In this document: positions 3,542 to 15,868 of the stretch, piece by piece
How the letters are laid out: each line of letters starts with the position of its first letter
Numbering within the stretch: position 1 is the stretch's first letter
From: an uncultured archaeon
GTDB taxonomy: Archaea > Hadarchaeota > Hadarchaeia > Hadarchaeales > Hadarchaeaceae
Direction: 5' to 3'
DNA: 64,000 nt
Assembly (NCBI GenBank): GCA_937921735.1
Contig: CAKZTQ010000032.1
Coordinates: 32,169-96,168, forward strand
Translations under genes and position numbers: made by a program
Notes under the pieces: model-generated
Databases searched by the model: none
The model's input: the letters and a program-made list of their open reading frames with translations, nothing else
Told to the model about the DNA's origin: nothing

Positions 3542-4370
3542 ATGCGATGTAGTTCGAAATGGAGCCCAGCTCTTCGGGCGTGAGGTCCATCACCCTCCTG
3601 TTCGCTAGATCCTTTGGGATCGTCTCGTCCACGATCCTACGCCTTTCCGACTTAGGCTTTGGTTGTGGAAACACCTCATTAAACGAGTGAAATAGGGCAT
3701 TGCGCACCTTTTGCCGCTTGTGCTGGAACAACGCGCGGACTACATCGAAAAATAGGGCTTCATCGATTACGTAAAAGGGCGGACTTCGTGGCCTCAACCT
3801 CACCAACATGGACGAGACCTTTGGTCTTGGGAAAAATGCAGAAGGCTCGACCTCCTCCAACAACTCGACTTCCGCACGATAGTATACGCCAACCGTCAAA
3901 CGACCATAGTCCTTGGAGCCGGGTTTGGCGATTAGCCGTTGGGCGAACTCCTTTTGATACATCAAAACAGCAAGCTCGAAGTCATGCTCGAGCAATTTGA
4001 ACGTGATCTCGGACGATATCGCGTAGGGCAAGTTCGCGACTACCTTATTGAAAGGCGGAAGCTCCATCTGCAAGATGTCTGCGTTCACCAGATCCACATT
4101 CGCGAGGCCCTTCGCCTGCTCCCGAAGGACTCGGAACAGCTTCGCGTCCCGTTCCACCGCTATTACCTTCCCCGCACGTTCTGCGAGCAGCTTCGTCAAG
4201 TTCCCCATCCCCGCACCTATCTCGAGCACAAGATCGCGAGAAGAGACGCCCGCGTAATCGACCATCCTCCTTAACAAGCTAGGGTCGATCACGTGGATTT
4301 GACTGCCGCGTTTGTTTAACCTTATGCCATATCTTCGCAAGGTCACAAGCAACTGGTGCATGCGATCCAC
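3501..4370 (-). CDS. rsmA: 16S rRNA (adenine-N6,N6)-dimethyltransferase RsmA/KsgA
   Basis: LEIGAGMG SAM motif, ANLPYAISS, YGRLTV, FFPRPKVSS. Confidence 0.93.
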   Translation of the reverse strand: MDRMHQLLVTLRRYGIRLNKRGSQIHVIDPSLLRRMVDYAGVSSRDLVLEIGAGMGNLTKLLAERAGKVIAVERDAKLFRVLREQAKGLANVDLVNADILQMELPPFNKVVANLPYAISSEITFKLLEHDFELAVLMYQKEFAQRLIAKPGSKDYGRLTVGVYYRAEVELLEEVEPSAFFPRPKVSSMLVRLRPRSPPFYVIDEALFFDVVRALFQHKRQKVRNALFHSFNEVFPQPKPKSERRRIVDETIPKDLANRRVMDLTPEELGSISNYIASNLKSPRAWVAPA

Positions 4371-9798: not shown

Positions 9799-10392
9799 TT
9801 ATCGATGGGAAAGTTTTGCGTAGCGCTTGTCGAGTTCTTCTACCAGCTCCTTTACCTCCTTGATTTCGGCAGCGTAGGGGCCTAGGTCTGCGTGCACGGC
9901 TCGCCAGAGCTCGTCTAACTCGCGCGCGCGATTTCCACGTTCTCGATACTTAATAGCTTGAATTAGCATAGAGAGATAGTCAGCCGCGTGGACGATCTTC
10001 GCCTCAAAGGTGTACTTCTCCGAGTACTCCCGCCAAAGTTCCATAAGCATTTGTTGATTGGGCAGACCGGCGACGAGATCCCTCATCGCCTTGCCCTCCA
10101 TTTGTTTCTTAGTTCCGGGTTCCCCCAAATACTTCAAAGCCGTGTAGGGAAAGTCCGCAACCATCGCCTCTGCCCAGTCATGCAGAAGCGCCATGCTGAG
10201 GGCCCTTTCGACATCTAGCTCGCGGCCGCCGCGCTTTGCCTCGTCCGCTAGCAGGAGCGCGATCGCCGCTACCTCAAAGGTATGCTGTGCAACGTCTTCG
10301 ACTTCGTTCAATGGCACATTGCACAGCAGCCAACCCGTTCGGGGTATACGCTTGAGGTCGTTAAGTTTTTCCAAAAGCTCGCTCAGTTTCAA
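9799..10392 (-). CDS. HD-domain hydrolase (YfbR/HDDC2-like 5'-deoxynucleotidase)
   Basis: LKRIPRTGW, VAQH, LLHDWAE, HAAD motifs. Confidence 0.85.
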   Translation of the reverse strand: MKLSELLEKLNDLKRIPRTGWLLCNVPLNEVEDVAQHTFEVAAIALLLADEAKRGGRELDVERALSMALLHDWAEAMVADFPYTALKYLGEPGTKKQMEGKAMRDLVAGLPNQQMLMELWREYSEKYTFEAKIVHAADYLSMLIQAIKYRERGNRARELDELWRAVHADLGPYAAEIKEVKELVEELDKRYAKLSHR

Positions 10393-10793
10393 ACTACCAC
10401 CAACTTAGCCTGCTTAACGCCCCGCATGGCTCCGATGCGGTCGACAAGCTTGCGGATTTCGTCCGCCGCTCCTTTCACGACGATGATCTCTAGGCAATTC
10501 TTGGCATCGACGTGCAAGTGCTGGGCGGCGCTTATCACCTTCGAGTGCTGGTGCTGGATGTCCATGAGTTCGTCCACCAACCCCCTGACGTCGTGCTCGT
10601 AAAGCACCATGATGGCCCCCAGCTGCTCACCCTTCAACTCGCTCCTCCACTTGTAGTTCGCCAAGAAATCGCGAAGGGCGTCCCTAATGGCTTCCGAGCG
10701 GCTCGCGTAGCGTTGAGCCCTAAGCACGCGATCGAGTTCGTCGAGCAGCTCACAAGGCAGGGTGAGGCTTATGCGAGCTATTCTCGAAGACAT
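10389..10793 (-). CDS. nikR: nickel-responsive transcriptional regulator NikR
   Basis: RHH domain (RISLTLP...SRSEAIRDA), YEHD, IQH, HLHVDAKNCLE (His/His/Cys Ni site); start may extend to 10826. Confidence 0.92.
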   Translation of the reverse strand: MSSRIARISLTLPCELLDELDRVLRAQRYASRSEAIRDALRDFLANYKWRSELKGEQLGAIMVLYEHDVRGLVDELMDIQHQHSKVISAAQHLHVDAKNCLEIIVVKGAADEIRKLVDRIGAMRGVKQAKLVVV

Positions 10794-10843
10794 GATGGCA
10801 CGATTGAATTTGCAAGATTTGGACATTTATGTTTTGCCGAAAC

Positions 10844-11137
10844 TCAGCACTTTGAGCGGGGTCTCGAGAGGACGACTGCGAAACCCCAAATGACGAGCAC
10901 CGGGATGAGCATCACGATTCCAAGTATGATCCCGCTAGTGATAGCCCCTTCCGTGGTCACCCGTATGAATTCCCCTCCTTCGTGCAGGTATCCGAGCACG
11001 TGGTCGACGAGTATCATCACCGTTGCTCCCCAAAGCATCAGACTCAGCATTCCGAGCTTGTATTCCCTGATGCCTAGAATTCTTAGCACCGTCACTAGAC
11101 ATGCCGCGATCAACGTCGTTATCAGCCACATGCTCAT
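10844..11137 (-). CDS. small 3-TM membrane protein, candidate Ni-transporter subunit B
   Basis: Three hydrophobic segments; motif LWGATVMILVDH shared with the upstream gene; in the nikR operon. Confidence 0.7.
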   Translation of the reverse strand: MSMWLITTLIAACLVTVLRILGIREYKLGMLSLMLWGATVMILVDHVLGYLHEGGEFIRVTTEGAITSGIILGIVMLIPVLVIWGFAVVLSRPRSKC

Positions 11138-11139
11138 GC

Positions 11140-11466
11140 CTACCTACGGATACCCAATCTCGTTTCCATCGTCTTTATCAAGTTGAGCCGCGGGGCGATC
11201 GTCAGCATGCCTGTCCAAAGGAGAGTGCATGCTAGGGCCATTGGAACTCCGATCCGAACCATTTCCGGCAGGACTTCAGATAGTCCGGCGGTCAAGAAGG
11301 GCGGATATGGCACGATTTCTCCGTGAGCTAAATGTTCGACCGCCAACATCGCCACGCCGCCCCACAGTAGAGCGTTTAGCCAGTTTATGTTGTACCTCGT
11401 CGGGAACTTTTTCCTGAACAGCGTGGTTATCGCGCCCAGCGCCATGGGAACGAGGAAACAAGCCAC
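11140..11466 (-). CDS. small 3-TM membrane protein (MACFLVP...), candidate Ni-transporter subunit A
   Basis: GTG start at 11466 after SD GAGGTGA; motif LWGGVAMLAVEH; three hydrophobic segments. Confidence 0.72.
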   Translation of the reverse strand: MACFLVPMALGAITTLFRKKFPTRYNINWLNALLWGGVAMLAVEHLAHGEIVPYPPFLTAGLSEVLPEMVRIGVPMALACTLLWTGMLTIAPRLNLIKTMETRLGIRR

Positions 11467-11486
11467 CCTTTCACCTCTTGCTTTTT

Positions 11487-11514
11487 GTAATACTTTTCCA
11501 TATTTAAATATTAC
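11487..11514. promoter_or_regulatory. NikR-type operator GTAATA-N16-TATTAC overlapping a minus-strand TATA box (TTTAAATA, 11508-11501)
   Basis: Perfect 6-bp inverted repeat with a 16-bp spacer, the geometry of the E. coli NikR site GTATGA-N16-TCATAC; directly upstream of the operon containing nikR. Confidence 0.8.
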
Positions 11515-11601: not shown

Positions 11602-11868
11602 ATGGAAAAGGAACCTGTTGAGAAGAAACTCGTAGGAAAGGTTACCCACTACTTTACGAGGATTGGGGTAGCAGTCGTTGAGTTGACAGACGAGTTAAAG
11701 ATAGGCGACAGGATTTCCATAGAGGGCGCGACCACGAATTTTCAACAGGTAGTGGGCTCCATGCAGATCGAACATAAAGACGTAAAGGTCGCTACGGCTG
11801 GGCAATCGATAGGTCTGAAGGTCGACCAAAGGGCACGTGAAGGGGACCTCGTCTACAAGATCCTTTAA
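11602..11868 (+). CDS. small beta-barrel protein (translation-factor domain II / peptidase U32 C-terminal-like)
   Basis: VGKVTHYFTRIGVAVVEL...SMQIEH...GQSIGLKV...REGDLVYK pattern. Confidence 0.75.
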   Translation: MEKEPVEKKLVGKVTHYFTRIGVAVVELTDELKIGDRISIEGATTNFQQVVGSMQIEHKDVKVATAGQSIGLKVDQRAREGDLVYKIL

Positions 11869-12737
11869 GCGGTTAGATCTAGCTTAAAAAGCAGGATTTT
11901 CGCCTTTCTTATATTTTCGGGAAGATTTCTGCAGTTCTTACAAAGGCCCATAGTTTGGGCGATCAAATCGCGATACCCTGAGAACTTCTCCTTTTTTTCC
12001 AGTATTCTGTCTAAGGTTCTCTCGAGTTGGGGGGTCGGCGCGAAAGTACTTCCGCATGCTGAGCATCGCCGCAGCTCTATCTTGGCTTCAGCCCCGATCG
12101 CTTTTCTATCCCCAGTTGCTCGTGGGCGCTCGGCCCCAAGCTCCACTGCCTCCTCCGGGCAGGCCTCCTCGCAGGAGGCACAGGAAATGCACTTTTCGTA
12201 TCTGAACCTCACCTTTCGTTCGTTGCCTTCGTCGACCATCTCTATTGCTCCAGTCGGACAAACCTGCACACAGGCCCCGCATCCGGTGCACTTCTCCGCG
12301 TCGATATTGGGCATTCCCCGAAAGCCACCGGGCACCTCCCAAGCTTTTGACCCCAGCTTTAAAACGTCAACGAGAGCCTCGACGATGGCGTGAGGGCTTG
12401 GAGGACACCCAGGCACATATGCGTCCACGTGAATTATTTCGTCCACCATGCCGTCCACGCTATAAGAGCCCTCGAAGGCCTCGCCGGACAGGGCACAAGC
12501 GCCGACCGCGATGGCTAGCCTCGGCGGCTTCAACCTTTCGTATACTTCTCTGAGCATATCTCGCGTCTTGACCGTCGGTACCCCTGTGACGATGAGCACG
12601 TTGGCCTCACTTGGGTCCCCGACGAGCTTTACCCCCAGCTCCTCTAACCCGAACCTTCTCGCAAATGCGCTGAACACTTCGATGTCACATCCGTTGCACG
12701 AGCCTACGTCCAGACGATAAACGTTGACCTGCCTCAA
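11865..12737 (-). CDS. group-4-type [NiFe] hydrogenase small subunit (NuoB/HycG-like) fused to a 2x[4Fe-4S] NuoI/HycF-like domain
   Basis: GSCNGCDIE, VGAC, VPGCPP; two CxxCxxCxxxCP motifs; C-terminal CxxC...CxxC. Confidence 0.88.
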   Translation of the reverse strand: MRQVNVYRLDVGSCNGCDIEVFSAFARRFGLEELGVKLVGDPSEANVLIVTGVPTVKTRDMLREVYERLKPPRLAIAVGACALSGEAFEGSYSVDGMVDEIIHVDAYVPGCPPSPHAIVEALVDVLKLGSKAWEVPGGFRGMPNIDAEKCTGCGACVQVCPTGAIEMVDEGNERKVRFRYEKCISCASCEEACPEEAVELGAERPRATGDRKAIGAEAKIELRRCSACGSTFAPTPQLERTLDRILEKKEKFSGYRDLIAQTMGLCKNCRNLPENIRKAKILLFKLDLTA

Positions 12738-13873
12738 ACCCCTCTCCTGAGCTCCGACAGCTCCACCTGATGCTTTTTTCCAGTTCGTTGATCTACGAGC
12801 GTCAGACGATTTGTGCAGGAGATGCAGCGGTCTATGCTTTCTAAAATCAAGGGAAGGTCACTTAACCTCTGTCCCCGCAACATCTCAGGGAGGCTGCGCT
12901 CGTTCATGTAGGTGGGCGTTCTGATCTTTACCCTCTCAGGGATGTTCGTGCCGTTCGACTTGACGAAGTAGATCAATTCGCCTCGCGGCGCTTCCACCCT
13001 CCCAACCTCTTCCTTTTCCTTTGGCGGCTCGCCAACTTCGGCCGCGATGTTGCCGGATGGGAAATCGTCTAATAGCTGCCGTATGATCTCGATGCTTTCA
13101 AAAGTTTCCTTTACCCTGACAAGCGTTCTCGAAAGCACGTCTCCCCCGTCCTCCACCTGCACCTCGAAGTCTACCTCTTCGTATGCGGCGTAGGGATCGT
13201 CCTTGCGAACGTCGCTCTCAACGCCGGATGCCCTCAAAACGGGCCCCACGACACCTAACGCCAGCGCTTTCTCCCTTGGCAATGGGCCTATCCCCGAAAG
13301 TTTCGGGGCAAGTTCCCGCGTGGCACGGGCGATGTACCCTGAGAGGCTTGTTAAATCGTCTAGCGCGTGTCTAAGTCTTCTGATCATCTCCACGCTTAGG
13401 TCCCCCCTCACCCCACCTATCGCGTTGATCCCATAATGGACGCGGTTGCCGCACATCAGCTCGATCAGATCCATGATTTCCTCCCGCGCATCGACGATTT
13501 TGATGAAATGTTCCTTTTCGCCGAGGGTGTGAAACAGTAACGCGGTCCATAGATAATGGCTCTGGAGCCGCTCAAGTTCAAACATAATCGTTCGAATGTA
13601 CTTGGCCCTCTCCGGTGGCTCAACCTCGAAGACCTTCTCTACGGTTTGACAGTAACAAGTGGTGTGGGCATGTGAGCAAAATCCGCATATCCGCTCGCAT
13701 AGGAAAACGCCTTGGGCATAGGTCTTTGTGGCGAGGAGCCTCTCGATGCCCCTATGCGTGTAACCTTGCTTTATGTCCACGTCGACGATCTTCTCGTTGC
13801 TCACCGTAACTTCGTAGAGTTCGGGCTCTACCAAGGCAGGATGATAAGGACCTATGACTACTATTTTCGACGT
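12734..13873 (-). CDS. group-4-type [NiFe] hydrogenase large subunit
   Basis: GPYHP, GYTHRGIE, L1 ERICGFC, EAPRGE, L2 DRCISCTNR plus a C-terminal extension; no ATG/GTG/TTG upstream of GPYHP, so start placed at ACG 13873 (track gives TTG 13834). Confidence 0.88.
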   Translation of the reverse strand, partial: TSKIVVIGPYHPALVEPELYEVTVSNEKIVDVDIKQGYTHRGIERLLATKTYAQGVFLCERICGFCSHAHTTCYCQTVEKVFEVEPPERAKYIRTIMFELERLQSHYLWTALLFHTLGEKEHFIKIVDAREEIMDLIELMCGNRVHYGINAIGGVRGDLSVEMIRRLRHALDDLTSLSGYIARATRELAPKLSGIGPLPREKALALGVVGPVLRASGVESDVRKDDPYAAYEEVDFEVQVEDGGDVLSRTLVRVKETFESIEIIRQLLDDFPSGNIAAEVGEPPKEKEEVGRVEAPRGELIYFVKSNGTNIPERVKIRTPTYMNERSLPEMLRGQRLSDLPLILESIDRCISCTNRLTLVDQRTGKKHQVELSELRRGV

Positions 13874-13876
13874 ACG

Positions 13877-14743
13877 CTACACCCCCATTTTCTCGATCAA
13901 CTGTGAAATGGGGCTGCGGTGGAACTCGAGCTTGAGCTCGTTTGTAGGGACGCCCACCGCCAAAGCCAATAACTCAACTATGTGGAGGCACGGAAAGTTG
14001 TATTTCAAGCCATATTTCCTTAGCGAGATCTGGCCCGTCTCAAACTGGAGGATGCACATTGGACAAGCGGTAATGATGCCGTCAACCATAAGTTCCTCGT
14101 AGCATCTCAATTTGAGGTGCAGCCTCTCTTTAAGTGCCGCTTCTTCGTTTACTTGCATCATTGGGAATCCACAACACATGCGATCTAGTTTGCAGCTGAC
14201 CACGTCGGCGCCGGTAGCTTGTACCAGCTCCGTCAACATCCCCGGTTTTCTCCAAATGTCCCCCCCGTCGGCCTCGCGAAAGAGATGACATCCAGGATGA
14301 ACCGCAGCCCTGAACGTCAGTGGTTTGGCGATTTCCTTTATTCGGCTGATCCCAATGTCTTCGTATAGAATTTCAACGATGTGTTTCACGTTTACCGTGC
14401 CCTCATACTTTCTCCCGACCTCCGAAAGTAGTCCGTTCACCTCTTCTCTCAGTCCACTTTCTTGCTTCATCGCTTCGTTCGCTTCCCAAAGCGTTTCGTA
14501 GCACCCGTTGCACAAGGTTATGATATCCAAACCAAGTTGCTCGGCTAAGCTTAGGTTTCTAGCGGAGAGCGCGAGGGACATCCGCCTGTCGGCTAAACGT
14601 GCCACCACAGGATCTGGACAACAGGAGTAGCCGGAAAGGTCCAATACCTCAACACCTAGCCTCTCGAAAAGTTTTCTGGCTGCAAGTTCCACGCTGGGGA
14701 TCCTCTGAGGGATGAGACAACCTAAGAATAGTGCGTATTTCAT
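13877..14743 (-). CDS. hdrB: heterodisulfide reductase subunit B-like protein (two CCG domains)
   Basis: FLGC...SCCP...CNGC and HPGC...MCCG...CPMC; all ten Cys positions present. Confidence 0.9.
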   Translation of the reverse strand: MKYALFLGCLIPQRIPSVELAARKLFERLGVEVLDLSGYSCCPDPVVARLADRRMSLALSARNLSLAEQLGLDIITLCNGCYETLWEANEAMKQESGLREEVNGLLSEVGRKYEGTVNVKHIVEILYEDIGISRIKEIAKPLTFRAAVHPGCHLFREADGGDIWRKPGMLTELVQATGADVVSCKLDRMCCGFPMMQVNEEAALKERLHLKLRCYEELMVDGIITACPMCILQFETGQISLRKYGLKYNFPCLHIVELLALAVGVPTNELKLEFHRSPISQLIEKMGV

Positions 14744-14748
14744 GAAAT

Positions 14749-15405
14749 CTACCCTCGCCTCAACTTTTTCCTCTCCCAATCGTATCCTGCTTTTTTATCG
14801 AAGGCAACCCGTTTCATCAGTTCCTGAAGTTCGCGGAGTGCTTCCTCGCTCGCGTAGCTGGCAGGGGGAGATGCCGGCAGACCGGCTTCGTCTCTCTTCC
14901 GCTGCATGTGAGGTGAAAGCGGGGCGGTCGTGCCAACCGATATCAGGGACTCGGCCACCGGACATATTTTAGCAGGAAGCTCCCCCTCGAAGGGGCCTCT
15001 CAGGGGTGGACTCCCGGACCACCCCTCCGGTAATAGTAAGGGAGCAGGTCTTGGATGGGCTTTGAACCTCACTCCGAAAAGCTCAGCGGTTTCCCTCTCC
15101 GCCCACTCCGCGGCTGGCATTAAATCCGAGATGCTGTCGATTTCACTTGTTTCCTTCGCGATCACCGCGCGCAAGACCACAACTGTGCCATCGACGTCGA
15201 AGTTGTAAAGCAATTCGATGTCTAGACCTTCGTCGACGGCAGCTAGCATCATAAACCTTCCCTTATTCGATAGTATCTCGACCGCCTTCCGAATCGACCG
15301 CGGCTCGATTTCGACAACCGCCCTCCTTTCGCGAGAGTAAATGACCCTCGCCTTGACTTCCCTCGTGAGACCCTCGAGGATTTCATCCACGGCCAGATCG
15401 GTCAC
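14749..15405 (-). CDS. NuoC/EchD-like hydrogenase subunit
   Basis: ELLYNF, IDSISDLMPAAEWAERETAELFGVRFKAHP, LLLPEGW...PPLR. Confidence 0.85.
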   Translation of the reverse strand: MTDLAVDEILEGLTREVKARVIYSRERRAVVEIEPRSIRKAVEILSNKGRFMMLAAVDEGLDIELLYNFDVDGTVVVLRAVIAKETSEIDSISDLMPAAEWAERETAELFGVRFKAHPRPAPLLLPEGWSGSPPLRGPFEGELPAKICPVAESLISVGTTAPLSPHMQRKRDEAGLPASPPASYASEEALRELQELMKRVAFDKKAGYDWERKKLRRG

Positions 15406-15868
15406 CCTCTATAGCATACATGCGTCTGTTAAATTCCTCCGCCTCGGCTCGGCTTACCACTCTCAAAGCTCCGGGCGAACAATACTTCGCGCATACCGGA
15501 TCTCCATCGCAGAAATCACATTTCGCCGAAACTCGATGTTCCTCGTCGAACCATGGGCATGATAGGGGACAAGCTAGGATGCAGGACCGGCAACCAATGC
15601 ACTTCATCGGATTTATCTTCACCCATCCGCTCTCATCGCTTTTGGTTATCGCTTCCTCGGGGCAGGACGCCAAGCAAACCGGCTCCTCGCAGTGTCTGCA
15701 GTTCGTTGCCTCAAATCTCGCCACACGTTCATCGAGCGAAATATGGATGTGAGATTTAGCTGGATCTAGGGTGCCATAGTGCTGAAAAGCACAAGCTATT
15801 TCACAATATCCGCAGCCCGTGCATCGCTCTGGGTCGTAAATCAAAACTTTCTGATGGGCTGCTTTCAT
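15383..15868 (-). CDS. 4x[4Fe-4S] ferredoxin-type electron-transfer protein (CooF/HycB/DmsB-like)
   Basis: CTGCGYCEIAC, CRHCEEPVCLASCP, CIGCRSCILACP, KCDFCDGDPVCAKYC. Confidence 0.9.
   Translation of the reverse strand: MKAAHQKVLIYDPERCTGCGYCEIACAFQHYGTLDPAKSHIHISLDERVARFEATNCRHCEEPVCLASCPEEAITKSDESGWVKINPMKCIGCRSCILACPLSCPWFDEEHRVSAKCDFCDGDPVCAKYCSPGALRVVSRAEAEEFNRRMYAIEGDRSGRG

Follow-up and report, generated by a model that had tools for sequence, protein, structure and literature searches.

We analysed a 64,000-nucleotide stretch of DNA from an uncultured archaeon of the Hadarchaeota (the window, meaning the whole stretch). Two small genes, called A and B here, are located between a [NiFe] hydrogenase locus and a gene for the nickel-responsive repressor NikR. 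All the features relevant to them lie on the minus strand and are given with window coordinates:

12734-13834, minus strand: [NiFe] hydrogenase large subunit (Pfam Complex1_49kDa 5.8e-63, NiFeSe_Hases 2.6e-15)
11865-12737, minus strand: [NiFe] hydrogenase small subunit (Pfam Oxidored_q6 2.2e-23)
11487..11514, minus strand: predicted NikR-type operator, GTAATA-N16-TATTAC, or GTAATAT-N14-GTATTAC when written as 7-mers; encloses TTTAAATA
11140..11466, minus strand: gene A, 108 aa, three membrane helices; GTG start 4 nt after GAGGTGA
10844..11137, minus strand: gene B, 97 aa (95 aa from ATG 11131), paralog of A, three membrane helices
10389..10826, minus strand: nikR, nickel-responsive ribbon-helix-helix repressor, assigned by Pfam and NCBIfam
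9799..10392, minus strand: HD-domain phosphohydrolase (YfbR-like; Pfam HD_3 1.1e-28, YfbR-like 6.7e-18)

The reading frames of A (11466-11140) and B (11137-10844) were confirmed where the original prediction had placed them, just upstream of nikR on the same strand, and Pfam confirmed both subunits of the [NiFe] hydrogenase that it had named as their neighbour. The large subunit translation carries both CxxC motifs. As all gene B homologs open with MWLITT, the true start of B is probably the second ATG (11131). Gene B and nikR, on the same strand, are separated by a 17 bp gap, and the first 4 bp of the HD phosphohydrolase gene coincide with the nikR stop region. nikR is probably co-transcribed with A and B and autoregulated, and the phosphohydrolase gene is likely to be the final gene of this operon; the nikR-HD order is kept in Hadarchaeota loci. 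The hydrogenase genes lie outside the operon, and their products probably use the nickel that A and B would import.

The nikR product has both the N-terminal DNA-binding domain (Pfam RHH_1 8.4e-8, residues 18-56) and the C-terminal nickel-binding, ACT-like domain (NikR_C 6.4e-28, profile positions 2-76 of 77). It scores above the cut-offs of two NCBIfam models, NF002169 (5.8e-48, 162 bits, cut-off 111) and NF003381 (7.4e-39, 133 bits, cut-off 105), and reaches 100 bits against TIGR02793, under the cut-off of 175.

The proposal that A and B are paralogous was borne out by both pairwise (BLASTP E 8e-5) and profile-profile comparison (hhalign probability 96.2 %, E 2.5e-9, 85 columns). They share a motif, LWGGVAMLAVEH in A and LWGATVMILVDH in B, which had been generalised as LWG(G/A)xxMxxV(E/D)H and regarded as a source of Met, acidic and His ligands for nickel. 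The W, the G and the E/D-H pair are indeed conserved across the whole family. In A the Met varies: it is found in 73/160 A-type versus 150/152 B sequences, and most members of a second subfamily (described below) have Leu in its place. The proposed ligand set was refined; its conserved candidates in A are Cys3, Glu44, His45, His48, Glu50 and Glu68, and in B the Asp/His pair. In gene A the N-terminal MACF, E44, H45, E50, PFLT, E68 and M76 are invariant, with alignment counts of 149/149 for C3 and 160/160 for each of E44, H45, E50 and E68, while H48 is present in 155/160. Gene B has an invariant W-G...D-H block (Asp 152/152, His 135/152), whose pair is numbered Asp45-His46 from ATG 11137 or D43/H44 from MWLITT. 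The AF2 model of A (pLDDT 70) consists of helices 2-16, 27-47 and 62-103.

Hundreds of relatives of A and B exist in archaea and bacteria (746 clusters at 90 % identity for A, 309 for B), annotated as "hypothetical"; the sole exceptions are two B homologs named ABC-type permease subunit by JGI. Searches of Pfam, NCBIfam, PDB sequences and PDB folds assigned neither protein to a characterised family. A Pfam scan of 71 family members gave no match either, CbiM/NikM (PF01891), NiCoT and HupE/UreJ included, and only unnamed "hypothetical" clusters appeared among the relatives in the ESM Atlas. Foldseek comparison of the A model and of a model of a natural A-B fusion with PDB produced 0 matches at E<=0.001, small helical bundles being poorly resolved by such comparison; among the matches listed, the best query TM-scores were 0.37 (A, against a protein that is no transporter) and 0.31 (fusion). 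The literature searched, PMC13524815 included, does not describe the family. Judging from these comparisons and searches, it appears to be previously undescribed, a statement that would be weakened if the supplementary tables of PMC2667541 contained such small proteins. Of the sequencing runs listed as carrying this DNA none is registered as RNA, and the four that were aligned consist of contigs throughout; two runs labelled metatranscriptomic yielded contigs with several genes and about 94 % identity to the window, which are probably DNA and carry no information on expression.

Three observations made on sequences support the view that A and B act together: their paralogy, their adjacency in 78/80 genome loci and the existence of natural A-B fusions (P0283, P0296, P0244 and the truncated P0348). 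In the fusions helices 2-3 of B come after A, five helices in total, and this order preserves a parallel topology. The AF2 model of fusion P0283 has a pLDDT of 82 and a pTM of 0.67, with the B half built on four sequences, since MAFFT aligned the B family to the A half of the fusions rather than in the block-diagonal form intended. Complex prediction for A + B with two alignments gave scores of 0.10 and 0.06 (mark 0.32), which weigh neither way on binding. Scanning of metagenomes with P0283 alone found no relative, and scanning with the fusion alignment found unfused A'+B pairs and no fusions. A physical A-B dimer would fit the paralogy and the fusions.

Ni-dependent repression of nikABCD by NikR is stated in the literature, where its signal is described as GTGTTAC-[N13/14]-GTAACAC and the reversed GTAACAC-[N13/14]-GTGTTAC (PMC545781). 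As the criterion for a NikR operator we used a 27-28 bp dyad of two 7-mers 13-14 bp apart, similar to GTGTTAC/GTAACAC or GTATGAT/ATCATAC. The TATA box TTTAAATA of the A-B promoter, located at 11501..11508, does lie inside a perfect GTAATA-N16-TATTAC palindrome (11487..11514), as the original prediction had it. Its reading as two 6-bp half-sites 16 bp apart holds in that the dyad is of the NikR type and matches the published signal, and was refined to the 7-mers GTAATAT-N14-GTATTAC, which agree with the reversed consensus in 11/14 positions (PMC545781).

The perfect palindrome occurs once in the 1,059,088-bp source genome (83 % complete), and its chance expectation with <=1 mismatch is 0.02 per window. 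Degenerate copies in the source genome (<=2 mismatches) number 14 versus 24 for a control pattern and are therefore at chance level; clustering was seen solely on a 2.6-kb contig, where the copies lie ahead of genes of RHH proteins unrelated to nickel, and these were rejected. When perfect 6-mer palindromes were counted by spacing, N16 did not stand out, since nested repeats raise the count at all spacings; a consensus-based site scan took the place of this count. A sigma-70 promoter scan found no match, the model not being applicable to an archaeon.

The operator is kept upstream of Hadarchaeota orthologs (56-67 % protein identity) though the flanks diverge, and precedes a single-gene form of the family in 6/6 loci. 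Orthologous loci have the same or closer sites, up to a perfect GTGTTAC-N13-GTAACAC in locus L040, and the palindrome search near homologs confirmed conservation across phyla. In 80 genome loci, the density of sites within 3 mismatches of the PMC545781 consensus is 2.54 per kb for regulatory windows versus 0.059 per kb elsewhere in the same loci, a 43-fold enrichment. Such a site accompanies 45/52 loci with nikR versus 5/28 without it, the nikR loci having received more regulatory windows. Overall, control of A-B by NikR is a well supported prediction, and NikR would be expected to bind the dyad at 11487..11514.

The same 80 loci were surveyed for neighbouring genes. nikR is found within 6 kb in 52 of them, under more than 15 phylum labels, and is immediately divergent in 21 of these 52; in sister Hadarchaeota it adjoins the single-gene form. 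HypF is encoded nearby in 10/80 loci and hydrogenase subunits in 7-10, which agrees with the link to nickel enzymes that had been proposed for the homologs. A gene for an outer-membrane channel of the OprB family or MetA type is located directly upstream in the same orientation in 28/80 loci, and in 23 of these 28 it is preceded by nikR and the operator. In Omnitrophota the operon reads nikR-(DUF2292)-outer-membrane porin-B-A.

Could the association with nikR be mere hitch-hiking, with A and B serving a function unrelated to metals? The 28/80 loci that have no nikR within the examined flank would fit this, but many of them sit on short contigs. The linkage recurs in unrelated gene orders in both domains and is accompanied by conserved NikR sites, residues of the metal-ligand type are invariant, and an independent link to larB and larC exists in the second subfamily. 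We find a function unrelated to metals hardly credible.

The original prediction had set the pair apart from NikABCDE, NikMNQO, NiCoT and HupE, and this distinction stands: the proteins have no Pfam match, and the locus contains no ABC set of the NikABCDE kind (SBP_bac_5, two permeases, two ATPases). No NikM/CbiM, NiCoT or HupE/UreJ was found in the source genome (83 % complete). Four genes of SBP_bac_5 binding proteins (Opp/Nik-type) are located elsewhere in this incomplete genome, which leaves room for a NikABCDE-like route. In archaea, only Nik/CbiMNQO, NikABCDE and NiCoT were detected according to the text of Zhang et al. 2009 (PMC2667541). Among 66 genomes of the phylum, which are related and do not constitute independent samples, 12 have a strong A+B pair, 14 have NikM/CbiM and 0 have both, and the genera with the pair and those with NikM/CbiM are disjoint. 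nikR adjoins the pair in 7/12 of these genomes versus CbiM in at least 6/14.

Either direction is in principle open to small membrane proteins that carry His and acidic residues, and A and B might instead export or sequester nickel and confer resistance. The operator overlaps the TATA box, however, and holo-NikR should therefore turn A-B off at high nickel, the opposite of what an exporter needs. The partners of the pair are passive outer-membrane porins rather than exit ducts of the TolC type, the pair is associated with maturation genes that consume nickel, and it and the importer NikM exclude each other. We consider a role in resistance very improbable; the context points to inward transport.

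To our knowledge, NikR is nickel-specific in every characterised case. The second subfamily, sampled as 80 metagenome loci, has a different neighbourhood while keeping the same Cys/Glu/His set: nikR is near 1/80, Fur-family regulators near 15/80 and Znu-like ABC-3 genes near 10/80 of its members, so its substrate could be another metal. In 8-9 of the 47 loci with enough flank, larB and larC are located directly downstream; the larC product matches Ni_insertion (PF01969) at 2e-135. The family could accordingly consist of metal importers for which nickel is not the sole or main substrate (cobalt, zinc, iron or divalent cations in general), with NikR as one wiring of several. ZIP, FeoB, DtxR and Fur genes, present in 5-6 of the 80 genome loci, fit such a scheme together with the neighbours of the second subfamily. 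Yet the Fur family includes the nickel-responsive Nur, larB-larC and HypF are nickel-specific neighbours, and the specificity of NikR and the mutual exclusion of the pair and NikM also speak for nickel. A broader or different main substrate seems to us unlikely, if worth keeping in mind, and nickel would be the substrate of A and B.

Since each protein has only three helices, A and B could also be accessory membrane subunits, such as a capture or gating module, or a membrane nickel sensor or chaperone, rather than an autonomous permease. Small membrane components of Ni/Co systems, namely CbiN, NikL and CbtB, provide precedents (PMC2667541), and genes of an ABC ATPase and ABC-3 proteins lie near the pair in the 10/80 second-subfamily loci mentioned above. 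Across the 80 genome loci, no other inner-membrane transporter gene is conserved beside the pair; the Omnitrophota operon comprises only nikR, DUF2292, porin, B and A, and partners of the NikM/Q type are missing from the source genome. The five-helix fusion is large enough to form a pore when oligomerised. An accessory role is in our view decidedly unlikely.

In our view, A and B are probably the two halves of a new NikR-repressed nickel uptake permease, in which a parallel 3+3-helix dimer would present a Cys/Glu/His site to the outside. At high nickel supply, Ni-NikR would bind GTAATAT-N14-GTATTAC, which brackets the TATA box, and block the access of TBP/TFB, so that the A-B-nikR-HD transcript would be turned off; when nickel is scarce, the A-B promoter would fire. 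The positive-inside rule predicts that both proteins have the N-terminus outside, the C-terminus inside and three helices each. With this topology, A and B would pair side by side into a parallel pseudo-symmetric dimer, and the invariant residues would come together where helix 2 reaches the outer face and at the translocated N-terminus. An outward-facing Ni(II) capture site could then be made up of Cys3, Glu44, His45, His48, Glu50 and Glu68 from A plus the Asp-His of B, and from this site Ni(II) would pass through the helix bundle into the cytoplasm with no ATPase and feed [NiFe] hydrogenase maturation.

Among known importers, NikM has seven helices and binds Ni partly through its N-terminus; the invariant MACF with which A begins is suggestive of an analogous arrangement. 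A and B differ from NikM/CbiM (PF01891) in having three helices each and no sequence match, and would operate without the Q (transmembrane) and O (ATPase) components, neither gene being found in the A/B neighbourhoods; their energy source is presumably not ATP. What they have in common with NikMNQO and Nik(MN)QO is the NikR regulator, the operator type (PMC545781) and, in sister genomes, the slot beside nikR. Like the proposed A/B system, NiCoT (HoxN/NixA, PF03824) and HupE/UreJ (PF04955) are stand-alone inner-membrane nickel uptake proteins with no ATPase, and their genes often adjoin hydrogenase or urease genes. Both are single chains of 6-8 helices with His/Asp motifs in the transmembrane helices, whereas A and B are two three-helix paralogs with no match to these Pfam families at E up to 1.

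The SemiSWEET proteins offer an architectural analogy only. Their three-helix protomers form a parallel dimer with one translocation path, and the eukaryotic versions are fused, as the halves are in some A/B proteins. Fusion of the SemiSWEET type adds a linker helix while the A/B fusions drop one helix, the substrate is a sugar rather than a metal ion, and no SemiSWEET is present among the Foldseek matches listed. CbtA has five helices, CbtB has one, and the two are under B12-riboswitch control as opposed to NikR; no homology to A/B was detected. CbtAB, a predicted cobalt transporter, resembles A/B in being a two-gene membrane system of the Co/Ni group predicted by comparative genomics only (PMC2667541).

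A wider reading, which we offer as a tentative whole and would not yet favour, is that A/B founds a class of minimal transition-metal permeases present in both domains of life, in which two three-helix protomers form one parallel pseudo-symmetric pore. The class might have begun as a single-gene homodimer, which was duplicated into A+B pairs and later fused into five-helix proteins. The free N-terminal amine of A, the Cys3 thiolate and a Glu-His-x-x-His-x-Glu crown might hold Ni(II), a chemistry that recalls the N-terminal sites of NikM and Ni-SOD on an unrelated scaffold. On this reading, A/B might be the main nickel entry in Omnitrophota, Hadarchaeota and many DPANN-type and Thermoplasmatota archaea, and might supply the nickel-pincer cofactor pathway as well.

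Hydrogenase, CO dehydrogenase, urease, methyl-CoM reductase and nickel-pincer enzymes are limited by the supply of nickel, and we know of many uncultivated anaerobes which have such enzymes and show no known nickel importer. If the A/B family is a true nickel importer, it would close this gap, and it would provide both a compact model of the transition from homodimeric to heterodimeric and fused transporters and a nickel uptake module of very small size and simple genetics, of use where hydrogenase or nickel-pincer enzyme activity is to be engineered. With this function assigned, the metabolism of Hadarchaeota, Omnitrophota, Thermoplasmatota and candidate-phyla bacteria would be reconstructed better.

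Genes A and B, coding for two small three-helix membrane proteins, lie directly upstream of nikR on the same strand, as stated in the original prediction, and belong to a compact array, listed here with neighbouring genes:

11514-11487, minus strand: 28-bp dyad, the first element of the A-B-nikR-HD array
11466-11140, minus strand: gene A, GTG start behind GAGGTGA, 108 aa
11137-10844, minus strand: gene B, 97 aa
10826-10389, minus strand: nikR (Pfam NikR_C, 6.4e-28; RHH_1, 8.4e-8)
10392-9799, minus strand: HD-domain gene for a YfbR-like phosphohydrolase, overlapping the nikR stop codon by 4 bp
11602-11868, plus strand: divergent 88-aa gene upstream of A, resembling EF-Tu domain 2 / peptidase U32 C-terminal domain under the Pfam cut-offs
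13877-14779, minus strand: HdrB-like Cys-rich ORF, by the look of its translation
14749-15405, minus strand: possible NuoC-like ORF, by the look of its translation
15383-15868, minus strand: polyferredoxin ORF, by the look of its translation

nikR also exceeds the cut-offs of two NCBIfam NikR models, and its assignment from Pfam and NCBIfam is unambiguous. Since B homologs all begin with MWLITT, the true start of B is probably the second ATG (11131). The nikR-HD pairing is kept in Hadarchaeota loci L001, L002, L036, L037, L163, L164, L166 and L167 (L numbers denote loci fetched from relatives), and the YfbR-like product is possibly an enzyme that depends on nickel or cobalt and is regulated jointly with uptake. 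The 88-aa gene, placed between the putative transporter genes and the hydrogenase, adjoins the locus in L001, L002, L017, L037, L163, L164, L166 and L167. The adjacent [NiFe] hydrogenase, which the importer was predicted to supply, is recognisable as well: Pfam identifies the small and large subunit genes upstream of A, and CxxC pairs are seen in the large subunit translation. This subunit is short (366 aa) and NuoD-like. Within the hydrogenase module (12734-15868, minus strand) the Pfam run was confined to the two subunits; by the look of the translations, it would be an unusual soluble group-4-like module.

The dyad, GTAATA-TTTAAATA-TGGAAAAG-TATTAC, holds the archaeal TATA box of the A-B promoter between its half-sites, as proposed for the GTAATA-N16-TATTAC palindrome. 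Its chance expectation in the window is 0.02. In the genome of this archaeon (1.06 Mb, 83 % complete) the perfect dyad is found a single time, while at up to two mismatches there is no excess (14 copies vs 24 for a control pattern). Rodionov et al. (2004, PMC545781) reported the NikR signals GTGTTAC-[N13/14]-GTAACAC for delta-proteobacteria, GTATGAT-[N13/14]-ATCATAC for enterobacteria and the reversed GTAACAC-[N13/14]-GTGTTAC; the dyad is of the reversed type and agrees with it in 11 of 14 positions. In Hadarchaeota loci with A at 56-67 % identity to that of the window only GTAATAT-(TATA box)-N-GTAWTAC has been kept in the otherwise diverged sequence upstream, and related dyads are found in other archaeal phyla (GTATTAC-N14-GTAATAC, GTAACAC-N13-GTGTTAT, GTGTCAC...GTGACAC). 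In Omnitrophota a NikR-type site precedes nikR by about 40 bp (a perfect GTGTTAC-N13-GTAACAC in L040), and a second one often follows nikR.

Eighty loci fetched from species-representative genomes were scanned for NikR sites in either orientation with up to three mismatches. The regulatory windows (upstream of A/B and around nikR, 31,865 bp) contained 81 sites vs 41 in the remaining 695,334 bp, i.e., 2.54 vs 0.059 per kb, a 43-fold enrichment. A site was found in 45 of the 52 nikR-bearing loci vs 5 of the 28 without nikR, the former having more windows. Judging from these sites, the A-B promoter is very likely to be under NikR control.

The genome of this archaeon also contains tandem dyads, GTAATAC-N14-GTATCAC and GTGATAC-N14-ATATCAC, at 1479-1559 of L082 (contig C12, 2609 bp). 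They precede two paralogous genes of 133 and 150 aa with RHH-like C-termini, adjoined by a TBP-like gene. This is possibly a small mobile element that carries an RHH repressor of its own and has no nickel connection.

A and B are paralogs by sequence comparison, as was proposed: BLASTP aligns them with E of 8e-5 over the common LWG...(E/D)H block, and when 27-sequence alignments are compared as profiles the probability is 96.2 % (E 2.5e-9) across 85 columns, the entire three-helix body. The original prediction did not recognise them as NikABCDE, NikMNQO, NiCoT or HupE, and the searches agree. At E up to 1 neither protein matched Pfam or NCBIfam, 71 family members produced scattered noise only against Pfam, the family profile had no match among PDB sequences, and ESM Atlas contained only unnamed clusters of relatives. 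In the AF2 model of A (pLDDT 70) helices span residues 2-16, 27-47 and 62-103; a natural A-B fusion was modelled with pLDDT 82 and pTM 0.67. Foldseek with either model found no PDB match at E<=0.001; among the matches listed, query TM-scores reached at most 0.37 (A) and 0.31 (fusion). At 90 % identity the family comprises 746 A clusters and 309 B clusters. Except for two B homologs (P0222, P0231) labelled by JGI as ABC-type permease subunit, these are either called hypothetical or have no annotation. Sources include Hadarchaeales (closest, 94-95 % identity), Freyarchaeota, Aenigmatarchaeota, Omnitrophota, Petrotogales and candidate-phyla bacteria. Identity between archaeal and bacterial members is about 60 %, which indicates strong constraint on the family. 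No description of it was found in literature searches, whose scope did not extend to supplements or Rodionov et al. (2006), nor is it described in the available passages of PMC2667541 or in those searched in PMC13524815.

B directly adjoins A in 78 of the 80 loci (the exceptions are one contig end and one locus without B), in the order B-A in 62 and A-B in 18. Natural fusions, P0283 (195 aa), P0296 (233 aa), P0244 (202 aa) and P0348 (truncated), have full A at the front and B helices 2 and 3 behind it, and lack the first B helix. By the positive-inside rule both proteins would be N-out/C-in, with the Arg/Lys-rich loop 1 and the C-terminus cytoplasmic and the acidic loop 2 outside. The fusions join the cytoplasmic C-terminus of A to B helix 2, so the halves stay parallel, in agreement with this topology. 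In genome G059 (contig C6, 8689-8949) a B-like frame beside a strong A match has one in-frame TAG, which could reflect an error in sequencing, a pseudogene or recoding.

Conservation was counted in 160 A-type and 152 B-type sequences. Glu44, His45, Glu50, Glu68, Met76 and the W-G pair of A are invariant (160/160); His48 is kept in 155/160, and Cys3 in all 149 sequences with an aligned N-terminus. In the D-H pair of B, Asp is found in 152/152 and His in 135/152. The shared block of the proposed motif is thus retained, but its Met holds for B (150/152) and not as a general feature of A-type proteins (only 73/160). Given the inferred topology, all these candidate ligands would be at the outer face. 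N-terminal nickel ligation is known from the chemistry of NikM and Ni-SOD; by analogy, the invariant Met-Ala-Cys start of A suggests a possible amine/thiolate ligand.

nikR is located within 6 kb in 52 of the 80 loci, being immediately divergent in 21. In 28 loci an outer-membrane channel gene lies directly upstream in the same orientation, of the OprB family (PF04966, 4.7e-29) in 20 and of the MetA type (PF13557, 7.7e-11) in eight. It is preceded by nikR in 23 of these 28, sometimes with a DUF2292 gene between them; the remaining five have less than 1.6 kb of upstream sequence. In nine Omnitrophota loci (L010, about 3930-4220; L048, 4109-4270; seven others) nikR and the porin gene are separated by this 53-aa DUF2292 (YezD-like) gene, which appears to belong to the Omnitrophota NikR operon. 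An operon in which inner-membrane proteins are joined with a repressor and a passive pore of the outer membrane has an import rather than export layout; efflux by A/B is considered highly unlikely. Other neighbours are HypF (10 loci), hydrogenase subunits (7-10 loci) and genes for Fur, DtxR, ZIP and FeoB (5-6 loci each).

A second subfamily, sampled as 80 metagenome loci (L083-L162), has an A-type protein, A' (about 132 aa), with a 17-40 aa insertion in the cytoplasmic loop, followed by B. nikR adjoins just one of these loci. larB and larC (Ni_insertion, 2e-135) are directly downstream in 8-9 of the 47 loci with enough flank (e.g., L099, 555-3389). LarC is described as inserting nickel in the pathway to the nickel-pincer cofactor, so this adjacency provides an independent nickel link for the family. 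It speaks against a broader or different metal specificity of the pair, which we consider rather unlikely in spite of the Fur-family regulator directly upstream in 12 of 54 loci and the Znu-like ABC-3 genes in 10. These neighbours would allow for another metal in part of the branch. The A'+B pair is sometimes near nadC.

In other genera of the phylum one divergent A-like gene fills the slot between the EF-Tu-D2-like gene and nikR-HD. This single-gene form (L163-L168 of sister Hadarchaeota genera; e.g., L163, 1726-2046, minus strand, beside nikR-HD) is about 105 aa long, reads MVCY...WWLN...YGG...VDHLWHGE, has the same operator element in 6/6 loci and has no B partner nearby in the six inspected. 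Presumably it is a homodimer, and probably the homodimeric ancestor of the A/B pair. Four arrangements therefore exist in the family: single-gene, A+B pairs, A'+B pairs and fusions.

Among 66 genomes of the phylum, that of the window included, a strong A+B pair is present in 12, a weak single match in 15 (the single-gene form in the six inspected), CbiM/NikM in 14 and NikR in 49. No genome combines the A+B pair with CbiM, and the carrier genera are disjoint; in G038 the single-gene form and CbiM are both present, each adjoining its own nikR copy. Of the 12 genomes with the pair, seven have nikR within about 3.5 kb of it; of the 14 with CbiM, at least six have nikR within 3 kb of CbiM. In sister genomes the nikR-adjacent slot is thus filled by either a known nickel importer or the A/B family. 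As the genomes are related and many are incomplete, this evidence for displacement of CbiM/NikM is supportive rather than statistical. The genome of this archaeon, at 83 % completeness, has no CbiM, NiCoT or HupE/UreJ; its four SBP_bac_5 genes have no substrate assigned.

An accessory rather than autonomous role of A and B seems decidedly unlikely to us. Overall, the observation behind the original prediction is confirmed, and its interpretation as a NikR-repressed heterodimeric nickel importer is supported, since every test that could be run came out in favour; we consider it likely that A and B together import nickel.
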